A program made the position numbers and the translations under genes. A stretch of DNA of 64,000 nucleotides from Spirochaetia bacterium. Lineage in GTDB: Bacteria; Spirochaetota; Spirochaetia; WTKD01; G963693115. Under the pieces are notes generated by a model. It had not been told where the DNA came from and made no database searches. It saw nothing but the letters and a program-made list of their open reading frames with translations. The stretch lies in contig CBDCGX010000010.1 of the NCBI GenBank assembly GCA_965216965.1, positions 6,249-70,248 on the forward strand. Direction: 5' to 3'. Shown here one piece after another: positions 49,340 to 59,516 of the stretch (positions are counted from its first letter, which is position 1; the number at the start of each line of letters is the position of its first letter).

Positions 49340-49979
49340 AAACAAAAACAATAAAAATTATCACAAAGAAGATGTATATATGAACACTGTCGTGCCCATG
49401 GTTCTTGAGCGCTCTGATGGGGTGGAAAGAGCCTTTGATATCTATTCTCGTCTTCTAAAGGAACGAATAATCTTTATTGGTGGTGTAATAGACGATGGTA
49501 TTGCAAACCTTGTTATTGCTCAAATGCTTTTTTTAGAGTCGCTTTCTACTGAGAAACCAATACAGTTATACATTAATAGCGTAGGTGGGTCTGTTACAGC
49601 AGGATTTGCAATTTATGATACAATGCAATACACAAATAGTCCTGTACAAACTATTTGTGTAGGTCAAGCAATATCGATTGCAGCATTGTTATTGGTAGCA
49701 GGGACACCTGAAAGAAGAAAAGCCCTTCCCTCATCACGTATTATGATACATCAACCATGGGGTGGTGTAGAGGGACAGGCAACAGATATTAGCTTACAGA
49801 CGAAAGAAATGTTACGAATAAAACAACTTATTACACATTATTTTGTAAAACATACTGGAAATAAAGAAGAAGTCATATCAAAGGATATTGAGCGGGACTA
49901 TTTTATGTCTCCTCAACAAGCACTTTCATATGGTCTTATAGATGAGATACTTGTGAGGCATGAAAAACAACATGAATGA
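49332..49979 (+). CDS. clpP: ATP-dependent Clp protease proteolytic subunit
   Basis: [18 protein letters not shown] (catalytic Ser), IMIHQP, ERDYFM. Confidence 0.97.
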
Positions 49980-51316
49980 TACTACTATTGAATGCTCTTT
50001 TTGTAGACAGATTGTTACAAACCAACAGGTGATACAGGGAAATAAAGCAATTATATGTAGAAAATGCATCTTATACTGTTCGAGCTTTTTTAAAGAAGAA
50101 GAGCATATAGAAAAAAAGAAGTATGATTTTTTAAAAGAACCACCAACCCCACAAGAAATAAAAAATATTTTTAGATGATTTTGTCGTGGGGCAAGAATAT
50201 GCAAAGAAGGTGCTTGCCGTTTCTGCATATAATCACTATAAGCGAATCTATCATAATAGAATGAATTTTCATAAGAAAGAAGATACAAATCATTTTCCTA
50301 AGGGTCATTATCAATATAAAAAATCATTGCAAAATGACAATGAGGATAAAAAAAAGGATGTACATGAGAATGTAGTCCTTGAAAAGTCTAACATATTGCT
50401 TATTGGTCATACGGGAGTTGGAAAAACCTTACTGGCCAAGACTCTTGCAGATTTTCTTAATGTTCCATTTGCAATAGCTGATGCTACTACACTTACCGAA
50501 GCGGGATATGTAGGTGAGGATGTCGAAAATATACTCCTTAAATTATATCAAGCAGCAGATAAAGATGTGGATGCAACGCAGCAAGGTATTATATTTATAG
50601 ATGAAATAGATAAAATTTCTCGAAAAAGCAAAAATCCTTCTATTACTCGTGATGTATCGGGAGAAGGGGTCCAACAAGCACTACTAAAAATCATAGAGGG
50701 CACTGTTGCTTCTGTTCCCCCGCAAGGTGGAAGAAAACATCCTCACCAACCGATGATACAAATTGATACAAGTAATATATTGTTTATATGCGGGGGAGCT
50801 TTTGTTGGATTAAAAGACATAGTGCTTTCTCGTATAAGTGCCCAGACACTGGGATTTGATAGCGATGTTTCTAATAAGGAATACTCTGACTCAGATATTT
50901 TAAAAAAGATACATCCAGAAGATTTAATCCATTATGGATTTGTTCCTGAGTTTGTAGGACGACTTCCTATTATTGCTTCTCTTGATTCTCATGATGCGAT
51001 AAGTTTACGGAAGATTTTATTAGAACCAAAAAACTCAATAATACGGCAAATGCAACAATTTTTCAAACTAAGCAATGTTGAGCTTGTGTTTGATGACGAT
51101 GCCATTACTACAATTGCCGAAATGTCATTTAGGCGGAATATTGGGGCGCGAGGACTTCGTACAATTATAGAGGAATTATTGCTTGATACCATGTATATAA
51201 TCCCTTCAAATTCTGATGTTAAACGAGTAAGGGTTACCCAAGAAGCAGTTCTAAAGAAGATTGCTCCTTATATTGAATATTCCCAAAGAATAAAAGCTAT
51301 TAAAGACAGTGCATAA
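49972..51316 (+). CDS. clpX: Clp protease ATPase ClpX, frameshift at ~50170 (T5 run)
   Basis: CSFC..CRKC Zn finger; [38 protein letters not shown]; one-base removal gives [13 protein letters not shown]. Confidence 0.95.
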
Positions 51317-51334
51317 TATACCGAAATTATAAAT

Positions 51335-52288
51335 ATGGATCTTCCATTTCTTAACTCTTTTATAACTGTAGACAATGCTGGTGAAAAAAATATACGTTCT
51401 TTGTTGAAACTTTCACATAAGTGTAAAAAAGAAGGCATACAGAAGAAAATGACGAGAAAACAATACCTTCTAGGGAAAACAATTGCACTGCTTTTTGAAA
51501 AACCTTCAACACGAACGAGGGCTTCATTTGAGACTTCTATATCAGAAGAGGGGGGAGGAGCTATTTTTCTCTCAAAAAATGATTTGCATTTAGGAGATAA
51601 GGAGAGTATAGAAGATACCGCACGTGTATTAGGGGGAATGTTTTCTGCCATAGTTTTTAGAGGAAACAAGCAGAATAATTGCGAAATTTTACAGAGAGAG
51701 AGTGGTATTCCTGTTATTAATGCGCTTACAGACACCCACCATCCAACTCAAGCATTAGCAGATATTATGACAATTCAGGAGCATTTTAAAGATTTAAGAA
51801 TAAAAAAAGACTGTATAGTCAGTTTTGTTGGTGATGGGTGCAATAATGTGGCATGTTCGCTTATTACAATATGTGCAATGCTTGGAATACGCATTCATAT
51901 AGCATCATCAAAGCATTACTTCCCATCAAAAGAAACACTTGTTATTGCAAGGCGATATGCGAAAAAGAATAAATCAGAAATACATATGGATGAAGATATA
52001 AAAAAGATGCTTAAGGGAGCTGATGTAGTTTATACTGATACATGGGTCTCTATGGGAGAAAAAGAAAGTAGCGTAAAAATAAAACGATGTAAACCATATA
52101 AAGTTACTCAAGAAGTAATGAAAATGGCAAAAAAAGATGCAATATTTATGCATTGTCTTCCTGCAAAAAGGGGATATGAAGTTTCTGATGAAGTAATTAA
52201 TGGAAAACAATCTCGTGTATGGCAACAAGCAGAAAATAAAAAACACTCTGCAAAGGCTGTATTGCTTGCATGTTTAAAAATTATATAA
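51335..52288 (+). CDS. argF: Ornithine carbamoyltransferase
   Basis: FEKPSTRTR, HPTQALAD, YTDTWVSMG, HCLP. Confidence 0.95.
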   Translation: MDLPFLNSFITVDNAGEKNIRSLLKLSHKCKKEGIQKKMTRKQYLLGKTIALLFEKPSTRTRASFETSISEEGGGAIFLSKNDLHLGDKESIEDTARVLGGMFSAIVFRGNKQNNCEILQRESGIPVINALTDTHHPTQALADIMTIQEHFKDLRIKKDCIVSFVGDGCNNVACSLITICAMLGIRIHIASSKHYFPSKETLVIARRYAKKNKSEIHMDEDIKKMLKGADVVYTDTWVSMGEKESSVKIKRCKPYKVTQEVMKMAKKDAIFMHCLPAKRGYEVSDEVINGKQSRVWQQAENKKHSAKAVLLACLKII

Positions 52289-52378
52289 TTTATAGAGGCT
52301 ATTCTGGTACAGGGGCTTTTGCACAAAATATTGGTGATATAGAGATCATCAATCAAAAATTAAAAGGATTATACGTTG
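52289..52378 (+). pseudogene. Deleted 5' remnant of the hypothetical gene at 59064
   Basis: ggtacagggg cttttgcacaaaatattggtgatatagagatcatcaatcaaaaatta..ttatacg matches 59118-59190. Confidence 0.85.
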
Positions 52379-52400
52379 TTTTTTTGTTCGCAAAGTAAAT

Positions 52401-53645
52401 CTATTTTATATATTTTGAGGGTTTTATATTTTTTATTCTTTGAAAGGAAATATAATTTACTATTCCAAAAACTGCTAGAAAGATTAAAGAAATTTCAATA
52501 AACATCCATAGGTTAAAATGGATTGGCAAATGAGTAGTGATTGTTCTATTAATAGCATTTACTTGAGGTAGAAAATGTGGTTTTGCTGATATTTCCCATG
52601 GTAATTCCATAGATATGTTCTGTTTGCTTAAAACGACTAAGGAGCCGATTGCAAAAACATTCCCTAGCAATAAAGCGATTATTAATAGGAAAACGCTTTC
52701 AGAAATAAATTGCCTCTTTAAATTCTTAAAACTCCATCCGATCATTCGCAAGATTGCAATTTCTTTTTCTCGGGTTTTAAAATTATAACTCACTAGCAAG
52801 CTAAAAATAATTAACAGAATTATTCCCAGAATGATAAACATAATTTTACCTAAAGATGAGACAATCTTAATTTGATCTAATATTTCTTTGTTAAAAGTTT
52901 TCTCGCTGAAAACAATATAATTTTTATTAAGTTTTTTAATTTCTTTTTCTTTGTTTCCTTGCCATTTTGGGTTGGCATCTAAAGCAACAACATTGATAAA
53001 GTTGTTGCTTTTAAATTTATAAATTCTTTGCATTTCAACAGAGCTTAAAATAATTTTTTGAGCTTTATCTAAGTTAAGATAAATATCAGCTGGAATAATA
53101 TTACTACTTAAGTTTGGTTTTAAAATCCCAGCTACTGTAAAACTTTTTTTTCCAAAATCAATTTTCGAATTTAGGTTTAGTTTATTCTTTTGGGCAAAAT
53201 CAGTGGTAATTAAAGCTTGGTTAGTAGACAAATTAAAATCACCTTGTTCTATATTTTGTTTTAAAAGTTTTTGAAAAGTGGAATTATCTGTTTTTATTCC
53301 TAAAACAGTTTTAAAATATTCTTCATCAAAATACCAAAAATAAAGTCCTTGGTCAGAATTTTGAATGAAATCAAGCTGGGAGATTCTAGATAACTCATCT
53401 TGGTAAATTGGTCCATTGGAATGCGGGAAAATAGCGCCAATCATCTGGTCAGGTATTTCTCCTGTTTTTTGTATGATTACACTAACACCAATTTTTTTAA
53501 AAGGAAGAGAAGCAACTTCTGGCAAGGATTTATTTAAGGTTAGTAGCACAGTTGATAATGTGAAATAAACAGTAATGCTTAAAATAAGAATAGTGATTTT
53601 TATTTTGTTGTTTTTACAAAAAGAAATGAAATAACTAAATATCAT
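52401..53645 (-). CDS. ABC transporter permease, FtsX/MacB family
   Basis: TM1 + large extracytoplasmic domain + REKEIAILRMIGWS + 3 TMs. Confidence 0.88.
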   Translation of the reverse strand: MIFSYFISFCKNNKIKITILILSITVYFTLSTVLLTLNKSLPEVASLPFKKIGVSVIIQKTGEIPDQMIGAIFPHSNGPIYQDELSRISQLDFIQNSDQGLYFWYFDEEYFKTVLGIKTDNSTFQKLLKQNIEQGDFNLSTNQALITTDFAQKNKLNLNSKIDFGKKSFTVAGILKPNLSSNIIPADIYLNLDKAQKIILSSVEMQRIYKFKSNNFINVVALDANPKWQGNKEKEIKKLNKNYIVFSEKTFNKEILDQIKIVSSLGKIMFIILGIILLIIFSLLVSYNFKTREKEIAILRMIGWSFKNLKRQFISESVFLLIIALLLGNVFAIGSLVVLSKQNISMELPWEISAKPHFLPQVNAINRTITTHLPIHFNLWMFIEISLIFLAVFGIVNYISFQRIKNIKPSKYIK

Positions 53646-53649
53646 AATA

Positions 53650-54714
53650 TCACAACCTAAAATTTTGGTTTAATAATGCTTCAATTCCTATGTAAGGTAA
53701 AACACTAAAATAAAATATGAGCAAAAAGATCAAACTGGTGAATAGAGAAAATACAATAATTAAAGAAGATTCAAAAAACATCCACTGTCGGGTTTTTTGT
53801 TTTGGCCAGCCAATTGTTTGAAGGATCCTTGTTTGCTTGCCAAGATCTATTTGATTCATTTTTAGAATCCAAAATATCAAAATAAGTGCTAAAAAACTGA
53901 TTCCGAAAGAAAAATAATCTCCAAATTTATAAATTAACCTGTTAAAAGATGATAAGTTTTTTAACAAACGATCTTTGGTTATGATAGAAATATTTGAGAA
54001 AATATTTCTAATTTCTTTTTGTACTTTAGATAACAAAGAAGCATTAGATAAAGATATATAAATTTGATTTATAATGGTTTTTTTTTGGTTGAGTAATGAA
54101 AGTGCTGTTTTATAAGGCATGAAAATTTGTGCATTTGACAAATTGCTTTCTTCTTTAAAATCAACTATACCTACTATTTTATAATCTTGATTATTTATTT
54201 TATATGAAGTGTTTAATTTATACCCAAATAATCTAGAAAAATGCCTTTCTAAAATTACTTCTAGAGCATTATCATTACTAAAAAAATTGCTTTTTGGCAT
54301 TAGCCAGTGTTCAATTTTTCGTAAACCGATTAGTGGATCGTTGACGTTTAGCCCAATAATTGTACGGTTGTTTTTAATATCAAATTGCCAAAGAACTAAA
54401 GAACTGGATGTTTCTTTTATTCCTTTAATATTGGAAAGCCTTTTTAAGACGTCATCTTTGTACAATGATTCTAGACTAAAAGGTTCAATTACTCCGGTTG
54501 TTTTTATCTGGTTAGCGTTTTTATTATTTTTATCCCATTGTAGAATGATTTCTGTTTTTAAGGAATTAAGCGGAGCATCAGCAAACTTTTTAATTTTGTT
54601 TATGAATAAAAAGGAAGTAAAAGCGAGAAAGAATAAAAAAGTAATCAATATTGTAATTAACGTGTTTTTTTTCCAATAGAAAAATAAATTTCTTAAAACA
54701 ATTCTTTTAATCAT
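53650..54714 (-). CDS. ABC transporter permease, FtsX/MacB family
   Basis: TM1, periplasmic domain (YKIVGIV, IFMPY), ILQTIGW. Confidence 0.82.
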   Translation of the reverse strand: MIKRIVLRNLFFYWKKNTLITILITFLFFLAFTSFLFINKIKKFADAPLNSLKTEIILQWDKNNKNANQIKTTGVIEPFSLESLYKDDVLKRLSNIKGIKETSSSLVLWQFDIKNNRTIIGLNVNDPLIGLRKIEHWLMPKSNFFSNDNALEVILERHFSRLFGYKLNTSYKINNQDYKIVGIVDFKEESNLSNAQIFMPYKTALSLLNQKKTIINQIYISLSNASLLSKVQKEIRNIFSNISIITKDRLLKNLSSFNRLIYKFGDYFSFGISFLALILIFWILKMNQIDLGKQTRILQTIGWPKQKTRQWMFFESSLIIVFSLFTSLIFLLIFYFSVLPYIGIEALLNQNFRL

Positions 54715-55199
54715 TTTTGATATTTATCAGGATTAGATAGTATTTTTTCTAAATAATCATAATTCCAAGAACCTTCCAAGGTTGGTACAAAAACATTGTC
54801 TTTTGGGAAATTTTTTAAAATTATTTCTTGTCCATCAATTAAAAAAGTATTTGTTCCTTTGATAAAAATTGCTACCGGAATATGGCCAAGTAAATTATAA
54901 TCTTTAATCTTTTGTTTGTTGTTTTTGTTATAAAAGTCATACTCTTTTAATTTATATTCTGGGAATTTTTTCAAAATACTTTCTATTCTTTTTTTGATTG
55001 GATTAATTGTCGAATGTGGAAGATAAAAAAACTCTACTAAGTTTTTTTCAACTTTTTGAGATTCGTTATTAGTGGATAAATTCTGAATAGTAGAATTATT
55101 TATTGGATGATTATTTTGATTTGATAATTTCCAAGAAACTATTCCTCCGATAAGAATAGCAATGAGAATAGAAATAATAAATAGATTTTTTTTCTTCAT
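54711..55199 (-). CDS. Membrane-anchored extracytoplasmic hypothetical protein
   Basis: N-terminal TM; overlaps both neighbours by 4 nt; YLPH, GHIPVAIFI, NFP..GSW; no Cys. Confidence 0.75.
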   Translation of the reverse strand: MKKKNLFIISILIAILIGGIVSWKLSNQNNHPINNSTIQNLSTNNESQKVEKNLVEFFYLPHSTINPIKKRIESILKKFPEYKLKEYDFYNKNNKQKIKDYNLLGHIPVAIFIKGTNTFLIDGQEIILKNFPKDNVFVPTLEGSWNYDYLEKILSNPDKYQK

Positions 55200-55855
55200 A
55201 ATGCCTCTAAATTTTGTTTTGTTAATTGATAATTTTTTTGCATTTTCCGTGCAATATCATTATCATGTGTAATAATAATAAAAGAAGTGGATAATTCTTG
55301 ATGTAATGTGTTAAAAAGCCCCATAATATTTCCCGATGTTGCTTCGTCTAAATTTCCTGTTGGTTCATCGGCTAAAACTATTTTTGGTTTTCCTACTAAA
55401 CTACGAGCAATTGCTACTCTTTGTTTTTCGCCCCCGCTTAGATTGTCAACTGTTTCTGTTAGTTTATTTTCAAGTTCTACAAGTTTAATCATATTTTCAA
55501 CAATTTTCTTTTTGTTTTCTTTTTTCATATCTTTTCTGGGATGAATAGCTAAGTATACATTATCAAACACTGATAGTGACGGAATGATTTTGAAATCCTG
55601 AAAAACAATACCGATATTTAGAAGGCGAAAATGTGCCAATTCTTCTTCATTCAAATTAGTAATTTCTTTATTTTCAAAGAATATCTTCCCCTCATCAGGC
55701 TTTACTAATCCTGCTAAAATAGAAAGTAAAGTTGTTTTACCGACTCCTGATTTTCCAATAATACTGATAAATTCTTTTTCTCCAATTGAGAAATTAATGT
55801 TTTTTAAAACTTCTTGAGTATTATATTTTTTTGAAATTGATTTTAATTTTAGCAT
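55196..55855 (-). CDS. ABC transporter ATP-binding protein (LolD/MacB type)
   Basis: GKSGVGKTT, LSGGEKQRVAIAR, LADEPTGNLD, ITHD. Confidence 0.96.
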   Translation of the reverse strand: MLKLKSISKKYNTQEVLKNINFSIGEKEFISIIGKSGVGKTTLLSILAGLVKPDEGKIFFENKEITNLNEEELAHFRLLNIGIVFQDFKIIPSLSVFDNVYLAIHPRKDMKKENKKKIVENMIKLVELENKLTETVDNLSGGEKQRVAIARSLVGKPKIVLADEPTGNLDEATSGNIMGLFNTLHQELSTSFIIITHDNDIARKMQKNYQLTKQNLEAL

Positions 55856-55856
55856 G

Positions 55857-56132
55857 TTATTTTTTATAAAGATTAATAATTTGTTTTAGTTTTTTAATTT
55901 TTTCTTCTGACACTTTTTTATTGGCTATAAAATCATTTAAAATAAAGCCTTCTAAAGTTTTAGCACGTAAGGAGTCAAACGATTTTACAACTGAAGTTGT
56001 TAGTTGTGCGATTTTTCCACAACATTCATCTTGTTCAATATATTTCTTAAGCGTTTTAAATTGCCCTTGAATACGATTTAAATGATTAATAGTTTGTTTG
56101 CGTTTTTCTTTTATTTCTTTTGTAATTTTCAT
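55857..56132 (-). CDS. CsoR/RcnR-family metal-sensing repressor
   Basis: HLNRIQGQ..IEQDECC..Q; 91 aa; GGAG RBS. Confidence 0.82.
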   Translation of the reverse strand: MKITKEIKEKRKQTINHLNRIQGQFKTLKKYIEQDECCGKIAQLTTSVVKSFDSLRAKTLEGFILNDFIANKKVSEEKIKKLKQIINLYKK

Positions 56133-56148
56133 GAAACACTCCAGTATC

Positions 56149-56201
56149 TATACCCCTATACCTATATTATATAGGATAGGAAAATTAATTTATTTTGTCA
56201 A
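56149..56201 (-). promoter_or_regulatory. Promoter and candidate operator of the CsoR-ABC operon
   Basis: Minus strand TTGACA-N17-TATCCT; inverted repeat CCTAT(A)CCTATA-TTA-TATAGGATAGG at 56155-56180; adjacent TATACCCC tract. Confidence 0.6.
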
Positions 56202-56240
56202 TAAGTTTTAATAAATATTTAGTTTTAATTTATTTTTGTA

Positions 56241-56374
56241 ATATTGATGAAAACACTAGTAACTAAAGAATACTCCGTAGGATATATTACTCGTTATTTG
56301 AATGAAAATGATATTTTAATCAAAAATAAAAAATATGGCATAGGAATACTCTTTCTAAAATATTATTGAGTTAA
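56241..56374 (+). pseudogene. Possible C-terminal relic of a serine recombinase
   Basis: ILMKTLVTKEYSVGYITRYLNENDILIKNKK then, after a -1 shift, WHRNTLSKILLS*; resembles S..IA..LN..GI....W.......IL. Confidence 0.45.
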
Positions 56375-56411
56375 GCTTAACAAAGTATGCAGTATAGTGT
56401 ATGCTAAACTC

Positions 56412-56778
56412 ATGGATCAGATATTAAAGAAATATCAGACATTATCCCAAAAATGCAGATTCAGAATAATGCATCTTCTAATCAAAGTAGAATCTCCGTT
56501 ATGTATTTGTGAACTCATGGACGTTCTTCATAAACCTCAATATAAAATTTCCAGGTGTTTATCGATACTTAAGGAAGCAAATCTTATTAATGAAGAACAC
56601 GACGGGCGACTTTTAATGCATAGCTCTGATTTATCAGAGCCTTTAAATGAAAATCTATTTGACAGTGTTCAATTAGTAAGCATAAAAGAAAATACAGATT
56701 TAATCGTTGATATTAATACACTGAATGACAGATTAGCTTTAAGAAAAAAATGGAAAGGTTGTAACTTACAACAAATGA
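56412..56778 (+). CDS. arsR: ArsR/SmtB-family repressor; C-terminus probably frameshifted at an A7 run (56744-56750)
   Basis: RFRIMHLL, PLCICEL alpha3 site, ISRCLSILKEANLI; removing one A ends the protein RKNGKVVTYNK*. Confidence 0.82.
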
Positions 56779-56797
56779 TATTTTTTTATATTTTTAC

Positions 56798-56819
56798 TAT
56801 GCATGGATTTGCATGCATA
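56798..56819. promoter_or_regulatory. Candidate ArsR operator
   Basis: TATGCATG-GATTTG-CATGCATA inverted repeat between arsR and the permease, next to a GGAG RBS. Confidence 0.55.
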
Positions 56820-56971
56820 TGGAGTATTAATTATGAAGAACTAGGGAAACGCATCAGAAAACGAAATTGTATGCTACTGCTTGTAAATTGTTAATGTAAT
56901 TAAAATGAAAAATATGAATGAAAAATATCTAATCAAAATTGGGCTATATTATCAATTGTTTGAGGTGAGAT

Positions 56972-57946
56972 ATGTTTGTGATATTTAGTAAACTTGCTGA
57001 TTTAATCATTTTTGACTTATTTGCATTAACTAAAGGAACAAAGCTAGCTAATGCCCTTCATTTCTTTGTTGAAGATACAACAAAGATATTCTTTTTAATT
57101 ATAATAATGATTTATATTATTGCGATTTTGAGAGCATCTTTAAATATGGAGTTTATTCGAACCCATTTACAAGTACGTTCTAAATGGTTTGGATATGGAG
57201 CTGCATCTGCATTTGGTGCGGTTACCCCCTTTTGTAGTTGTTCTAGTATTCCAATGTTTTTGGGTTTTACTTCGGTTGGGATACCAACTGGTGTCACGCT
57301 TGCTTTTCTAATAACCTCGCCTCTTATTAATGAGGTAGCTGTTGTTTTATTAGGTTCCCTCCTAGGTTGGAAATTTACTGCAGTATATATTACTGCAGGT
57401 CTTTCTGTAGGAATAATTGGAGGTTTTCTTTTTGACTATCTTAAAGCAGATAAGCAGTTACAGCCGCTTGCATCAAAAATACGTGATGATGAAACGACTG
57501 TAAATGAGAATATTGTGCAACAAAAATTATCTATGCACGATCGCCATCTCTTTGCAAAACAAGAAACTATTGAAATTTTTAGACATATTTGGAAGTGGGG
57601 TATCTTTGGTGTTGGAGTCGGTGCTGCATTACATGGATTTGTACCAGAAAGCTGGATTTCAAACCATCTTGGTAATGGAACGTGGTGGTCAGTACCTATA
57701 GCTGTTCTTATGGGAATACCACTTTATAGTAATGCTTCAGGGATGATTCCCGTTGTTGAAACTCTACTTGCTAAAGGACTTCCTGTGGGTACAGCTCTTG
57801 CCTTAATGATGTCAACCGTTGGAGCAAGCTTTCCCGAGTTCATTTTGTTAAAAAAAGTTTTAAAGCCAAAGCTTTTAGCTTGGTTATTTATTTACTTTCT
57901 AATATCATTTACAATGATTGGGTGGCTAATTAATTTTTTATTTTAA
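56972..57946 (+). CDS. arsP: ArsP/DUF318-family permease
   Basis: VTPFCSCSSIP, FLITSPLINE, HGFVP, GIPLYSNA, GTALALMM; multi-TM. Confidence 0.88.
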   Translation: MFVIFSKLADLIIFDLFALTKGTKLANALHFFVEDTTKIFFLIIIMIYIIAILRASLNMEFIRTHLQVRSKWFGYGAASAFGAVTPFCSCSSIPMFLGFTSVGIPTGVTLAFLITSPLINEVAVVLLGSLLGWKFTAVYITAGLSVGIIGGFLFDYLKADKQLQPLASKIRDDETTVNENIVQQKLSMHDRHLFAKQETIEIFRHIWKWGIFGVGVGAALHGFVPESWISNHLGNGTWWSVPIAVLMGIPLYSNASGMIPVVETLLAKGLPVGTALALMMSTVGASFPEFILLKKVLKPKLLAWLFIYFLISFTMIGWLINFLF

Positions 57947-57957
57947 AAGAGAAAAAC

Positions 57958-58293
57958 ATGAGTGAAAAAAAGAAGGATGTGTTTTCAGTGGGCAATAAAT
58001 TTAATCTTTGCTTGTTCAAATGCTGCTGGTGTTGAAGGTATATCCGATCAAATAGTAAGAAAAATGACAAAGGACAGATCTGAAAAAAAATTAGCAATAG
58101 TTATGGATGCCCTGTTGTTTGTACAAAAAAGTTGCTTGAGAGAAACGGATTTAATGAGCTCAAATATGTGGAACTGATAAGTATTGGTTTTAAGAAAGAA
58201 AGAACGCCAATCTCGGAAGAAGCGATAAATACTGCTTCTGAGAAAGGCAAAGAGTTATTTTACTGTTATAATAAATATAAAGAATTATTATGA
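57958..58293 (+). pseudogene. DGC-domain (putative Zn-binding) protein, frameshifted with an internal deletion
   Basis: LIFACSNAAGVEGISDQIVRKM in one frame, GCPVVCTKKLLERNGF..IGFKKERTP in another; the usual central segment appears missing. Confidence 0.7.
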
Positions 58294-58520
58294 TAATTAA
58301 AATTTTAGGTAGTGGATGTTTGAAGTGTAAAATGCTGGAGAAAAACACCAGAAAAGCGGTTGATGAGTCTGGGATAGATGCTGAAGTGATAAAAGTAACG
58401 GATCTTAACGACATTATGAGTTATGGAGTAATGGTAACACCTGCTTTAGTTATAGATGAAGAAGTAAAATCGGTCGGGAAGATCCTATCGCCGGATCAAA
58501 TTATTTCATTTCTCAAATAA
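58290..58520 (+). CDS. Small thioredoxin-family redox protein (MTH895-like)
   Basis: IKILGSGCLKC, YGVMVTPALVID; 76 aa. Confidence 0.92.
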   Translation: MIIKILGSGCLKCKMLEKNTRKAVDESGIDAEVIKVTDLNDIMSYGVMVTPALVIDEEVKSVGKILSPDQIISFLK

Positions 58521-58591
58521 AGTAAAGAAACAATGATGGTAGAAATATTCTCACTACATTATTATCTCTATGCCATTTTCAAGTATTCCAG

Positions 58592-59193
58592 TAAACGAGT
58601 AGGGGCTACCCAGGAAGCAGTTCTAAAGAAGATTGCTCCTTAAATATTGAATGTTTTCAAAGAATAAAAGCTATTAAAGACAGTGAGTAATATGCCGAAA
58701 TTATAAATATGGATCTTCCATTTCTTTGCTCTTTTATGACTGTAGATAATGCTGGCGAAAAAAACATACGTTTTTTCTTGAAGCTTTCACATAAGTGCAA
58801 ATATAAGGAGCAGTATGAAGATAAAACGATGTAACCCATATAAAGTTACTCAAGAAGTAATAAAAATGGCAAAAAAAGATGCAATATGTATACATTGTCT
58901 TCCTGAAAAAAGAGACTATGAGGTTCCCGATGAAGTAATCGATGGGAAACAATATCGTGTATGGCAACACGCAGAAAATAAAAAACACTTTGCAAAGGCT
59001 GTATTGCTTGCATGTTTATAAATAATATAATATAATGAAATGTATATTTTTGAAGGAGAGGATATGAAGAAAATATTTTTAAAAATTTATATAGCTATAT
59101 GTATAGTGACTACCTTTGGTACAGGGATAGTTTTTGCACAAAGTATTGGTGATATAGAAATTATCAATCAGAAATTAGAAGAATTATACGCTA
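58592..59193 (+). repeat. Right copy of direct duplication (clpX 3' remnant + deleted argF + start of intact gene 59064)
   Basis: taaacgagta..ctaaagaagattgctcctta..atggatcttccatttctt..ataaaacgatgtaa..gcatgttta matches the left copy. Confidence 0.92.
58709..59021 (+). pseudogene. argF: argF remnant with a ~630-bp internal deletion
   Basis: MDLPFLCSFMTVDNAGEK joined out of frame to KIKRCNPYKVTQEV..HCLP; STRT and HPTQ motifs lost. Confidence 0.9.
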
Positions 59194-59516
59194 CTGAATA
59201 TGGATATGTTGCTCGTTATGCTACATCCGATTTATATAGAGGGGAATTATATATTCCACGAGCGTGGTTTGTTTCTATAGATAAAAAAGAGGGAGATCCA
59301 GATATTTATGCACAACAAGTAACAACTGCAGCAGACTATTCTCTCCCATATCTTAGACTTGTCTATGTTGATAAAGTACTCAAAAGAATTCGACTGATAG
59401 TACCGAAGGAATATTCTAGAAGTGGTGTTCCTCCTTATAAAGGAAGATTGACTAAGGAAGAGCTTAAAGTGAAATTTGATGAACAAGCTGCAAGCGGTGT
59501 TATTACAGTACGCTAG
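59064..59516 (+). CDS. Hypothetical exported protein
   Basis: GGAGAGG RBS, signal peptide ending VFA/Q. Confidence 0.75.
   Translation: MKKIFLKIYIAICIVTTFGTGIVFAQSIGDIEIINQKLEELYATEYGYVARYATSDLYRGELYIPRAWFVSIDKKEGDPDIYAQQVTTAADYSLPYLRLVYVDKVLKRIRLIVPKEYSRSGVPPYKGRLTKEELKVKFDEQAASGVITVR

Follow-up and report, generated by a model that had tools for sequence, protein, structure and literature searches.

A conserved ABC transporter cassette with an anchored, thioredoxin-like partner on a Spirochaetia genomic island: a candidate variant of the type VII systems

Type VII ATP-binding cassette (ABC) systems are few, and each one that has been characterised has a different job: lipoprotein release, cell division, efflux of drugs or toxins, heme removal or lipid hydrolysis. 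A five-gene operon on contig CBDCGX010000010.1 of a Spirochaetia bacterium (assembly GCA_965216965.1) raises the question of whether this group has a further member and what such a member would do for the cell. The stretch that was analysed, here called the window, is 64,000 nt long, and all positions given without a locus name refer to it. An initial annotation, made from the letters alone, had proposed an uncharacterised metal- or metalloid-responsive system composed of a repressor, an ATPase, an anchored periplasmic protein and two permeases. In this study, we conclude that what the operon encodes is a genuine variant of the type VII ABC systems, so far uncharacterised, with a periplasmic partner of its own. 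On balance, we think it probable that the operon as a whole is an undescribed variant of the MacB/LolCDE/FtsEX fold, which combines an anchored partner with a CsoR-family repressor and resides on a horizontally acquired island. Its genes, in order from the repressor, are as follows.

55857-56132, minus strand: CsoR/RcnR/FrmR-family repressor, 91 aa (PF02583, 44.3 bits)
55196-55855, minus strand: ABC ATPase, 219 aa (ABC_tran, 124.9 bits)
54711-55199, minus strand: anchored, Cys-free partner with a predicted thioredoxin fold, 162 aa (no Pfam family above cut-off)
53650-54714, minus strand: permease 1, 354 aa (MacB_PCD, 42.3 bits; partial FtsX, 16.4 bits)
52401-53645, minus strand: permease 2, 414 aa (FtsX, 44.1 bits; MacB_PCD, 27.4 bits)

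The open reading frame (ORF) listing agrees with the annotation in placing five minus-strand genes within 52401-56132, and their packing is as tight as had been described: from the repressor onward, the junctions are a 1-nt gap, two successive 4-nt overlaps and a 4-nt gap. Also as annotated, no HlyD/MacA-type adaptor or outer-membrane factor such as TolC is encoded on the island (Pfam, 11 window proteins), and the scanned flanks of related loci (81 + 79 ORFs) gave no HlyD-type or OEP match either; the search did not extend to the rest of the genome.

Related loci were obtained from pattern scans confirmed by tblastn: species-representative genomes contributed 10 loci, out of 70 stretches with a pattern match, and metagenomes 45, out of 206. 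The eight island proteins of the window and nine neighbour proteins were compared with these loci by tblastn at a hit threshold of E<=1e-4. The order ATPase-partner-permease 1-permease 2 is kept in all 55 related loci, as far as the contigs reach. The ATPase is present in 48 of them, and in the remaining seven the partner gene lies at most 132 nt from the contig start. Permease 1 was found in 53 loci; L032 ends within the partner gene, and L054 gave no match in the 254 nt left. Permease 2 was found in 40, the other 15 contigs ending before it or at most 91 nt past permease 1. No foreign gene occupies a cassette position in any of the 55. Its recurrence in 55 independent loci makes the four-gene arrangement more than chance. 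The hosts span at least seven phyla and include Atribacterota, Gammaproteobacteria, Deltaproteobacteria/Desulfocapsaceae/Thermodesulfobacteriota, Spirochaetaceae, Nitratifractor and Deferribacterales. The annotated role of the 162-aa protein as a dedicated extracytoplasmic partner is supported. Of the associations that the annotation had proposed to score for its homologues, that with the two permeases is seen in the counts above, that with PF02583 regulators holds in 22 of the 35 loci surveyed below, and that with ars genes failed (0/55).

The partner contains a single hydrophobic segment (residues 5-23, by hydropathy). Because a KKK start precedes this segment, the N-terminus should lie inside and the remainder of the protein outside the membrane. 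In an alignment of 51 family members the protein is anchored or lipidated throughout, a lipobox taking the place of the helix at the N-terminus of many remote homologues. An AlphaFold2 (AF2) model made with ten homologues had a mean predicted local distance difference test (pLDDT) value of 76.7, with 10-residue block means of 78-96 from residue 51. Compared by VIA-align with 48,161 chains, the model matched thioredoxins, PDI b and b' domains, ERp27, SasA-N and thioredoxin fusions (Z 7.7-9.6, 80-100 residues aligned); by title, most of the 50 rows listed are thioredoxins, PDI-type domains or thioredoxin fusions. Foldseek also returned mostly thioredoxins on top (E 0.02-0.1, probabilities 0.9-0.99), and an ESM Atlas look-up (unnamed clusters 0.90-0.92, thioredoxin lead 0.87) is compatible with this fold and adds nothing to it. 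Judged by its model, the partner has a thioredoxin fold.

The translation contains no Cys and shows the YLPH and GHIP motifs, as had been annotated. The place of the thioredoxin CxxC (strand-loop-helix) reads FFYLPHS in the partner, with LPHS or LPHPP filling the loop before helix 1, and the loop before strand 3 is GH-I-P, its Pro standing at the cis-Pro position. These two loops come together at the active site of thioredoxins. The redox CxxC is missing from the partner, and Cys occurs in the folded domain of just two of the 51 family members. F131, P132, G143 and W145 are invariant in the family alignment, and at least 90% of the 51 sequences share H62, P64, H106, G115 and L150. A CX4C pair (e.g. 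VCNSSSC) was seen in the flexible linker before the thioredoxin-fold domain of six of the ten close homologues (P0002-P0007); it is missing from the window partner and from three other close homologues.

A hidden Markov model search of 1.84 billion representatives with the partner family gave 109 clusters at E<=1e-3, 40 at E<=1e-10 and 10 at E<=1e-30. The partner domain has a Pfam family in none of the 48 members scanned, and the window protein has no NCBIfam family. Four of these 48 relatives carry extra parts: an HMA domain with GMTCxxC in the remote homologue P0056, a DUF4395 membrane domain in P0094, an FtsH_ext domain in P0067 and a Dimerisation2-like domain in P0116. Tails rich in His and Cys form the C-termini of the remote homologues P0052 and P0087. 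A cluster look-up of ten family members returned no functional names beyond 'CopZ', given to the HMA fusion, and a glycerol-3-phosphate-binding label, both evidently automatic.

In both permeases the hydrophobic segments bracket residues ~40-265, which corresponds to a large periplasmic domain between transmembrane (TM) segments 1 and 2, and the MacB-type periplasmic domain (PF12704) is matched in each. Permease 2 has four hydrophobic segments (17-35, 268-286, 320-338 and 381-399), and its FtsX match (PF02687) lies above the cut-off of 25.5 bits. Permease 1 has three (20-38, 268-286 and 318-336) and ends 18 residues later, outside the membrane; its FtsX match is below the same cut-off and covers profile positions 3-69 of 120 only. 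Four TM segments, by which type VII ABC permeases are recognised, are thus present in permease 2 and not in permease 1. The three-helix form was found in 26 of 26 aligned permease 1 sequences, of which 25 share the final column and one (L010) stops four columns earlier; the consensus tail is ...NQNFxL. Because these 26 sequences end alike, the lack of a fourth helix belongs to the family as a whole and does not stem from a truncation in this particular genome. As permease 1 has three TM segments, the system is classed as a variant of the type VII ABC transporters. The idea that the helix of the partner might substitute for the missing TM4 was set aside, since the topology would be opposite (N-in/C-out versus out-to-in).

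The AF2 model of permease 2 (pLDDT 82.6) gave 67 Foldseek matches at E<=0.001. The best was LolE (9rlc_E, E 4.7e-15, TM-score 0.62), followed by MacB, HrtB, Spr0695, YbbP, YtrF, BceB and FtsX at 10-15% identity. The sequence profiles of the two permeases found nothing in the PDB sequences at E<=0.01, and against the NCBIfam lolCE and ADOP models the permeases scored 17-27 bits, with cut-offs of 360-620. Invariant extracytoplasmic His residues are H158 in permease 1 and H75 and H357 in permease 2. In an alignment of 25 permease 2 sequences the periplasmic motif IFPHSNGPI is invariant, and the outer loop of ~40 aa between TM3 and TM4 holds MELPWEISAKPHFLP as an invariant periplasmic motif. A complex prediction for permease 1, permease 2 and the partner (930 residues, own alignments), run without controls, scored 0.00, which counts neither for nor against such a complex.

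Walker A, signature, Walker B and H-loop are readable in the translation of the ATPase. Its best solved relatives are OpuCA (top, 6.6e-51, no stretch passing alone), then YtrE, MJ0796, LolD, BceA, YbbA and FtsE. The NCBIfam scores of 207.3 bits for LolD (TIGR02211, cut-off 307.75) and 207 bits for FtsE are both below the equivalog cut-offs. By sequence likeness, we assign the ATPase to the LolD/FtsE/MJ0796/YtrE type. The description of an uncharacterised conserved module agrees with these low equivalog scores, with the permease profiles and with the partner that has no family. Keyword searches of the literature returned no published description of such an operon; PMC3140484, which came up in them, was matched through unrelated genes.

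How the operon is controlled can be read in part from its first gene and the DNA before it. The repressor matches PF02583 over residues 11-87 (cut-off 22.8 bits). FrmR is its best family and structure match, and its NCBIfam scores are 39.3 bits for FrmR (cut-off 133) and 21.3 bits for RcnR (cut-off 138). An ungapped alignment to E. coli FrmR (5lbm) places Cys38 on FrmR Cys35 and Phe63 on FrmR His60. When five homologues were aligned, only Cys38 (the X position) and His17 were invariant. The Y position is Phe or Ser and the Z position Asp, Glu or Gln, in the register given by the FrmR alignment; the N-terminus reads MKI... or MND..., with neither Pro2 nor His3, and Cys37 belongs to the window protein only. 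As given in the available part of PMC8643695, the W-X-Y-Z fingerprints of the family are x-C-H-C for Cu, H-C-H-H for Ni/Co, P-C-H-x for formaldehyde and x-C-x-C for persulfide. None of these four is matched by the repressor, which has x-C-(F/S)-(D/E/Q). The clade may already figure among the uncharacterised clusters 6-9 in the supplements of PMC8643695. The annotated response to metals or metalloids is therefore suggestive only: membership in PF02583 and metal hints nearby speak for it, while Cys38 alone is kept and the Y and Z ligands are missing. Two elements lie upstream of the repressor gene.

56150-56165, minus strand: operator-like site ATAGGTATAGGGGTAT, core of ATATAGGTATAGGGGTATAGA, 18-33 nt before the repressor ATG
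56173-56201, minus strand: promoter-like TTGACA-17-TATCCT (consensus scan 10/12), directly upstream of the operator

The operator consensus ATATAGGGGTAGGGGTATA occurs upstream of CsoR-like genes across the loci, with variants of the form ATATAGG(G/T)(G/A)T(A/G)GGGGTATA, and the stretch predicted as the target of the repressor is ATATAGGGGTAGGGGTATAT. The pattern ATAGG-N2-5-GGGTAT has a single match when both strands of the 64-kb window are scanned (56165-56150, minus strand). It was found in 17 of the 22 loci having a CsoR-like gene, invariably upstream of that gene, and had no match elsewhere in 337,193 nt of loci. The five exceptions are L002 and L018 with a longer variant, L037 with ATACCCCCCAGTGTAT, L033 with a broken regulator gene, and L041, where the upstream DNA is cut off. 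Both G-tracts of the operator lie on one strand rather than making up a C4...G4 palindrome. The operator agrees in style with published CsoR/RcnR sites (PMC3902906). Comparison of the loci thus makes the pairing of repressor and operator well supported. Promoter-like sites are no more numerous in this region than in shuffles, and the promoter is weak when taken alone; it gains support because it adjoins the conserved operator.

Regulators were surveyed in the 35 loci that include the ATPase start and at least about 200 nt upstream (tblastn table and Pfam scans), with the following result.

CsoR-like gene directly upstream: 22 of 35 loci
Extracytoplasmic function (ECF) sigma factor, zf-HC2 anti-sigma factor and PF13801 'Heavy-metal resistance' protein as a set, or the last two genes: 6 of 35 loci (L005, L010, L011, L044, L045, L057)
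Crp-type regulator: 2 of 35 loci (L006, L008)
No regulator recognised: 5 of 35 loci (L009, L036, L046, L049, L058)

Because the regulators vary among the loci, the four-gene cassette is regarded as the constant part and the regulator as exchangeable. Three CsoR-type cassettes are adjoined by a conserved pair of genes for a DsrE-like protein (107-120 aa) and a secreted membrane protein (230-320 aa), which combines a Met/Gly/Trp-rich region with a SHOCT domain at its C-terminus.

L003, 5906-6929: DsrE-like/SHOCT pair
L004, 4380-5400: DsrE-like/SHOCT pair
L037, 9618-10923: DsrE-like/SHOCT pair, followed by a cation diffusion facilitator (CDF) exporter

A PCYCGC protein is encoded near the cassette of L033. 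The passage on SHOCT and silver in PMC10694973, as far as that text was available, concerns a single induced gene only. Integrase, recombinase or phage-like genes adjoin several related loci. Two further neighbours were observed. A secreted protein of ~240 aa with a weak alpha-acetolactate-decarboxylase-like Pfam match (E 6e-9, 6e-7) flanks four cassettes that have no CsoR-like gene, and a second set of ABC ATPase, 4-TM FtsX permease and LolA-like gene lies directly downstream of two cassettes.

L006, 1207-1929: acetolactate-decarboxylase-like protein
L043, 2728-3453: acetolactate-decarboxylase-like protein
L046, 4714-5019: acetolactate-decarboxylase-like protein
L057, 5883-6407: acetolactate-decarboxylase-like protein
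L011, 9424-12522: second ABC/FtsX/LolA-like set
L049, 5629-9793: second ABC/FtsX/LolA-like set, with an additional ABC-2 system

In the Spirochaetia genome the operon shares an island with an ArsR-ArsP-thioredoxin module. The divergent position and the gene content of this module had been annotated correctly, as Pfam and NCBIfam confirm.

52376-58591: accessory island of 6.2 kb, consisting of the operon and the divergent ArsR / PF03773 permease / Thioredoxin_3 module (56397-58520)
56397-56894, divergent from the operon: ArsR/SmtB helix-turn-helix protein (Pfam/NCBIfam)
56972-57946, divergent from the operon: PF03773 'ArsP_1' permease (PF03773, 229 bits)
58290-58520, divergent from the operon: Thioredoxin_3 / MTH895-ArsE protein (Pfam/NCBIfam)

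The island lies between direct repeats that are ~90% identical (51220-51427 with 58592-58801, and 52067-52375 with 58809-59190) and that cover the 3' end of clpX, argF and the beginning of the gene that follows. In the left copy argF is whole and the downstream gene is reduced to a remnant. In the right copy argF has lost ~640 nt of its middle (58815-59021 is an OTCace C-terminal fragment) and the downstream gene (59040-59516) is kept. The arrangement looks like a Campbell-type integration, by homologous recombination, of a circle that carried a diverged copy, followed by reciprocal decay. The G+C content is 0.25-0.29 in the ABC cassette, about 0.35 in the PF03773 gene and 0.33-0.35 in the flanks. 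Permease 2 was found in none of 40 relatives (E<=1e-20) and in none of 400 other genomes sampled across the host phylum (E<=1e-40); the PF03773 permease was found, patchily, in four of 20 relatives. A DNA search for the insertion site in genomes of the same genus did not find it, clpX being only 67% identical and argF lying elsewhere. We conclude that the operon is horizontally acquired on a low-GC island, and that the ABC cassette and the ars module are separate cargo of one island whose neighbourhood is accidental. As a side observation, clpX (49960-51316) is split between two frames: a TAG ends the zinc-ribbon N-terminal part (49960-50178), and the AAA+ part runs on in the +1 frame, with ...LDDFVVGQE readable across the break. 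The frame changes within a T run after AAAAAATA, which may be an assembly error in the metagenome-assembled genome (MAG) or a real frameshift. The ArsR-like ORF, at 165 aa, is ~50 aa over the usual length and has a hydrophobic, Cys-containing C-terminal extension that resembles read-through.

What these results demonstrate is the content of the operon, the folds, the kept order of the genes, the pairing of regulator and operator, and the status of the island; from them we infer a model that concerns complex formation, transport direction, inducer and substrate. In the uninduced cell, the repressor would sit on the double-G-tract operator at its own promoter and keep the operon off. A signal would modify or bind Cys38, possibly together with His17, and thereby cause derepression. 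The LolD-like ATPase, presumably as a dimer, would power an asymmetric pair of a three-helix and a four-helix permease, both of which carry a periplasmic domain of the MacB type. As ATP is bound and hydrolysed in the cytoplasm, these domains would be moved (mechanotransmission); they would pick up a toxic species in the periplasm or the outer leaflet, with hand-over to or from the partner. The anchored, Cys-free protein would act as the dedicated periplasmic partner in the role of LolA, EnvC or TesA, with its two conserved His in the loops that form the active site of true thioredoxins. Both the mechanotransmission and the hand-over are proposed by likeness to LolCDE-LolA, FtsEX-EnvC and YbbAP-TesA as they appear in the accessible part of PMC12646458. 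The operon probably protects the cell envelope, perhaps from metals.

A metal ion or metal complex is our leading guess for the substrate, possible and held with some doubt. The regulator belongs to the PF02583 family, and PF13801-linked ECF sets occur in six loci. Among remote partner homologues an HMA domain (P0056) and His-rich tails (P0052 and P0087) point the same way, as do the Met-rich SHOCT and DsrE-like neighbours (L003, L004 and L037), the CDF exporter (L037) and the PCYCGC protein (L033). All three membrane proteins also have invariant outer His, those of the partner, H62 and H106, being near-invariant. In its most specific form, which we regard as unlikely, the system would be the first metal-dedicated ABC machine of the MacB/LolCDE fold: driven by ATP, a relay of invariant His on the three-TM and four-TM permeases would take a soft or borderline metal ion (Cu, Ni, Co or Zn) from the periplasm and exchange it with a Cys-free carrier of thioredoxin fold, under a CsoR-family repressor with an undescribed Cys38/His17 sensing site. 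On this reading the system may be part of a broader class, not yet recognised, of type VII ABC motors paired with anchored partners of thioredoxin fold.

Several observations weigh against the favoured reading and its metal substrate. No characterised homologue of the cassette was found, and all related sequences retrieved come from MAGs or metagenomes and have no functional names. The loci include the near-duplicates L002/L018/L060, L023/L024, L007/L041 and L044/L045, by which the counts overstate independence. The repressor has none of the published sensing fingerprints, and the signal therefore need not be a metal, formaldehyde and persulfide being sensed in this family as well. A classical metal site is lacking from the partner, which contains neither CxxC nor a Met-rich motif; a pair of His is not enough to define one, and the HMA-fused relative P0056 has Arg at the position of His106. 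Metal-related neighbours are few (about five loci), and PF13801 proteins are also general envelope-stress proteins. By the titles of the structures matched and by PMC12646458, the solved type VII ABC systems handle lipoproteins, peptides, antibiotics, heme and hydrolase partners, and not free metal ions.

In a further reading, possible though rather unlikely, the same machine would pull a toxicant of hydrophobic or amphipathic nature out of the outer leaflet or the periplasm and hand it to the partner, and Cys38 would sense a thiol-reactive signal. Candidates are heme or a porphyrin, antimicrobial peptides, membrane-active compounds, and lipids or proteins that an electrophile or a sulfur species has damaged. 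The nearest solved folds (LolE, the heme system HrtB, YbbP, BceB and MacB) extract membrane-embedded or lipid-linked substrates, and YbbAP-TesA is described, in the part of PMC12646458 at hand, as extracting hydrophobic compounds. FrmR, to which the repressor is closest, is a formaldehyde sensor, and the repressor has one conserved Cys only. DsrE-like genes, which adjoin three loci, encode sulfur carriers, ECF- and Crp-type regulators would suit general envelope or redox stress, and the Cys-less thioredoxin folds among the structural matches of the partner (PDI b' and ERp27) bind peptides. However, the FrmR mechanism fails in a repressor without Pro2 and the CstR mechanism in one without a second Cys, no bacteriocin, lantibiotic or heme genes recur in the scanned flanks, and the HMA fusion and His-rich tails of remote partner homologues point to metals. 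It is improbable, though worth weighing, that the motor and its partner instead serve biogenesis, by delivering a cofactor or metal to an extracytoplasmic protein, or by folding or releasing such a protein, in the manner of NosDFY-NosL or LolCDE-LolA. Type VII systems do include the trafficking and activation machines LolCDE-LolA and FtsEX-EnvC (PMC12646458, same part), and NosL is presented in the available text of PMC8457098 as the lipoprotein Cu chaperone of the nos cluster, which assembles the Cu centres of N2O reductase. The anchoring or lipidation of the partner across its family and the LolA-like gene in the second ABC/FtsX sets of L011 and L049 would fit such a role. On the other hand, no client gene is conserved alongside the cassette across the 55 loci, the lolCE and LolD equivalog scores are far under their cut-offs, and a repressor-controlled accessory island with a permease found in none of the 400 other phylum genomes is unlike housekeeping trafficking.

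The initial annotation had also suggested that the system was co-selected with organoarsenical resistance. A tie between the ABC system and the ArsR/PF03773 permease/thioredoxin module, in which it would handle arsenic or antimony species, has some appeal, because both modules are on one 6.2-kb island with divergent promoters and the ArsR-like protein has LCICEL at the usual place of the As(III)-binding CxC, to which it presumably corresponds. Nevertheless, we consider this tie very improbable and have dropped the suggestion. The window ArsR, PF03773 permease and small thioredoxin were found by tblastn in none of the 55 related loci, the sole ars trace being a 93-aa ORF of L010 with a sub-threshold ArsP_1 match (24.5 bits, cut-off 32.3). 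G+C sets the two modules apart, and so does their distribution among relatives (0/40 for permease 2 and 4/20 for the PF03773 permease). In addition, the PF03773 protein is below every NCBIfam cut-off: 107 against 325 bits for SaoE, 97 against 300 for SO_0444 Cu/Zn efflux and 32 against 100 for arsenic_eff.

The type VII variant with an anchored partner and a CsoR-family repressor is thus the reading that we prefer. It would add to this small group a multi-phylum variant with two features for which keyword searches found no description, namely a permease without the fourth helix and a Cys-free partner of predicted thioredoxin fold. The repressor and its sharply defined operator provide a genetic handle by which the inducer, and hence the function, can be tested directly. 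Should the substrate be a metal, anaerobes of sulfidic sediments would have a new way of handling metals in the periplasm, and the CsoR family would gain a new sensing site.

Known systems resemble the operon to different degrees. NosY is of the ABC-2 type. NosDFY-NosL may work like the operon, by analogy only, in combining an ABC motor with a lipid-anchored periplasmic metal carrier (NosL being an 18-kDa lipoprotein Cu chaperone in the accessible text of PMC8457098), whereas the permease fold, the partner fold and the gene set are unrelated. The repressor is like CsoR, RcnR, FrmR and CstR in its PF02583 membership and in the X-position Cys that aligns with FrmR Cys35. It differs from them in its fingerprint, in G-tracts on the same strand instead of a C4...G4 palindrome, and in an invariant helix-1 His17 that has no described role in the family. 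MacAB-TolC has the same PF12704 periplasmic core and FtsX domain, and MacB chains are among the top fold matches, but here the ATPase is a separate polypeptide (the matched MacB chains have 599-650 residues) and no gene for a MacA/HlyD adaptor or an outer-membrane factor is present on the island or in the scanned flanks. EnvC is a coiled-coil/LytM protein, and the partner of FtsEX thus differs in fold from the thioredoxin-like partner predicted here. The cassette also has two different permease genes, one of them truncated, unlike FtsEX-EnvC and YbbAP-TesA. TesA is a lipid hydrolase in the part of PMC12646458 consulted. As that part describes them, YbbAP-TesA and FtsEX-EnvC follow the logic proposed for the operon: a cytoplasmic ATPase drives periplasmic domains that work with a dedicated partner, and neither an adaptor nor an outer-membrane duct is involved. 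The fold matches of permease 2 include YbbP and FtsX. LolCDE-LolA differs by 11-15% sequence identity, by lolCE (TIGR02212) scores of 24 and 18.7 bits against 362.45, by four TM segments where permease 1 has three, and by LolA in place of an anchored thioredoxin-like partner, and its housekeeping distribution contrasts with a repressor-controlled island set found in 0/40 relatives and 0/400 phylum genomes. What LolCDE-LolA and the operon have in common is a separate ATPase, two unlike FtsX-type permeases with MacB-type periplasmic domains and a periplasmic partner, and LolE is the best structural match of permease 2, as LolD is among the best equivalog matches of the ATPase.

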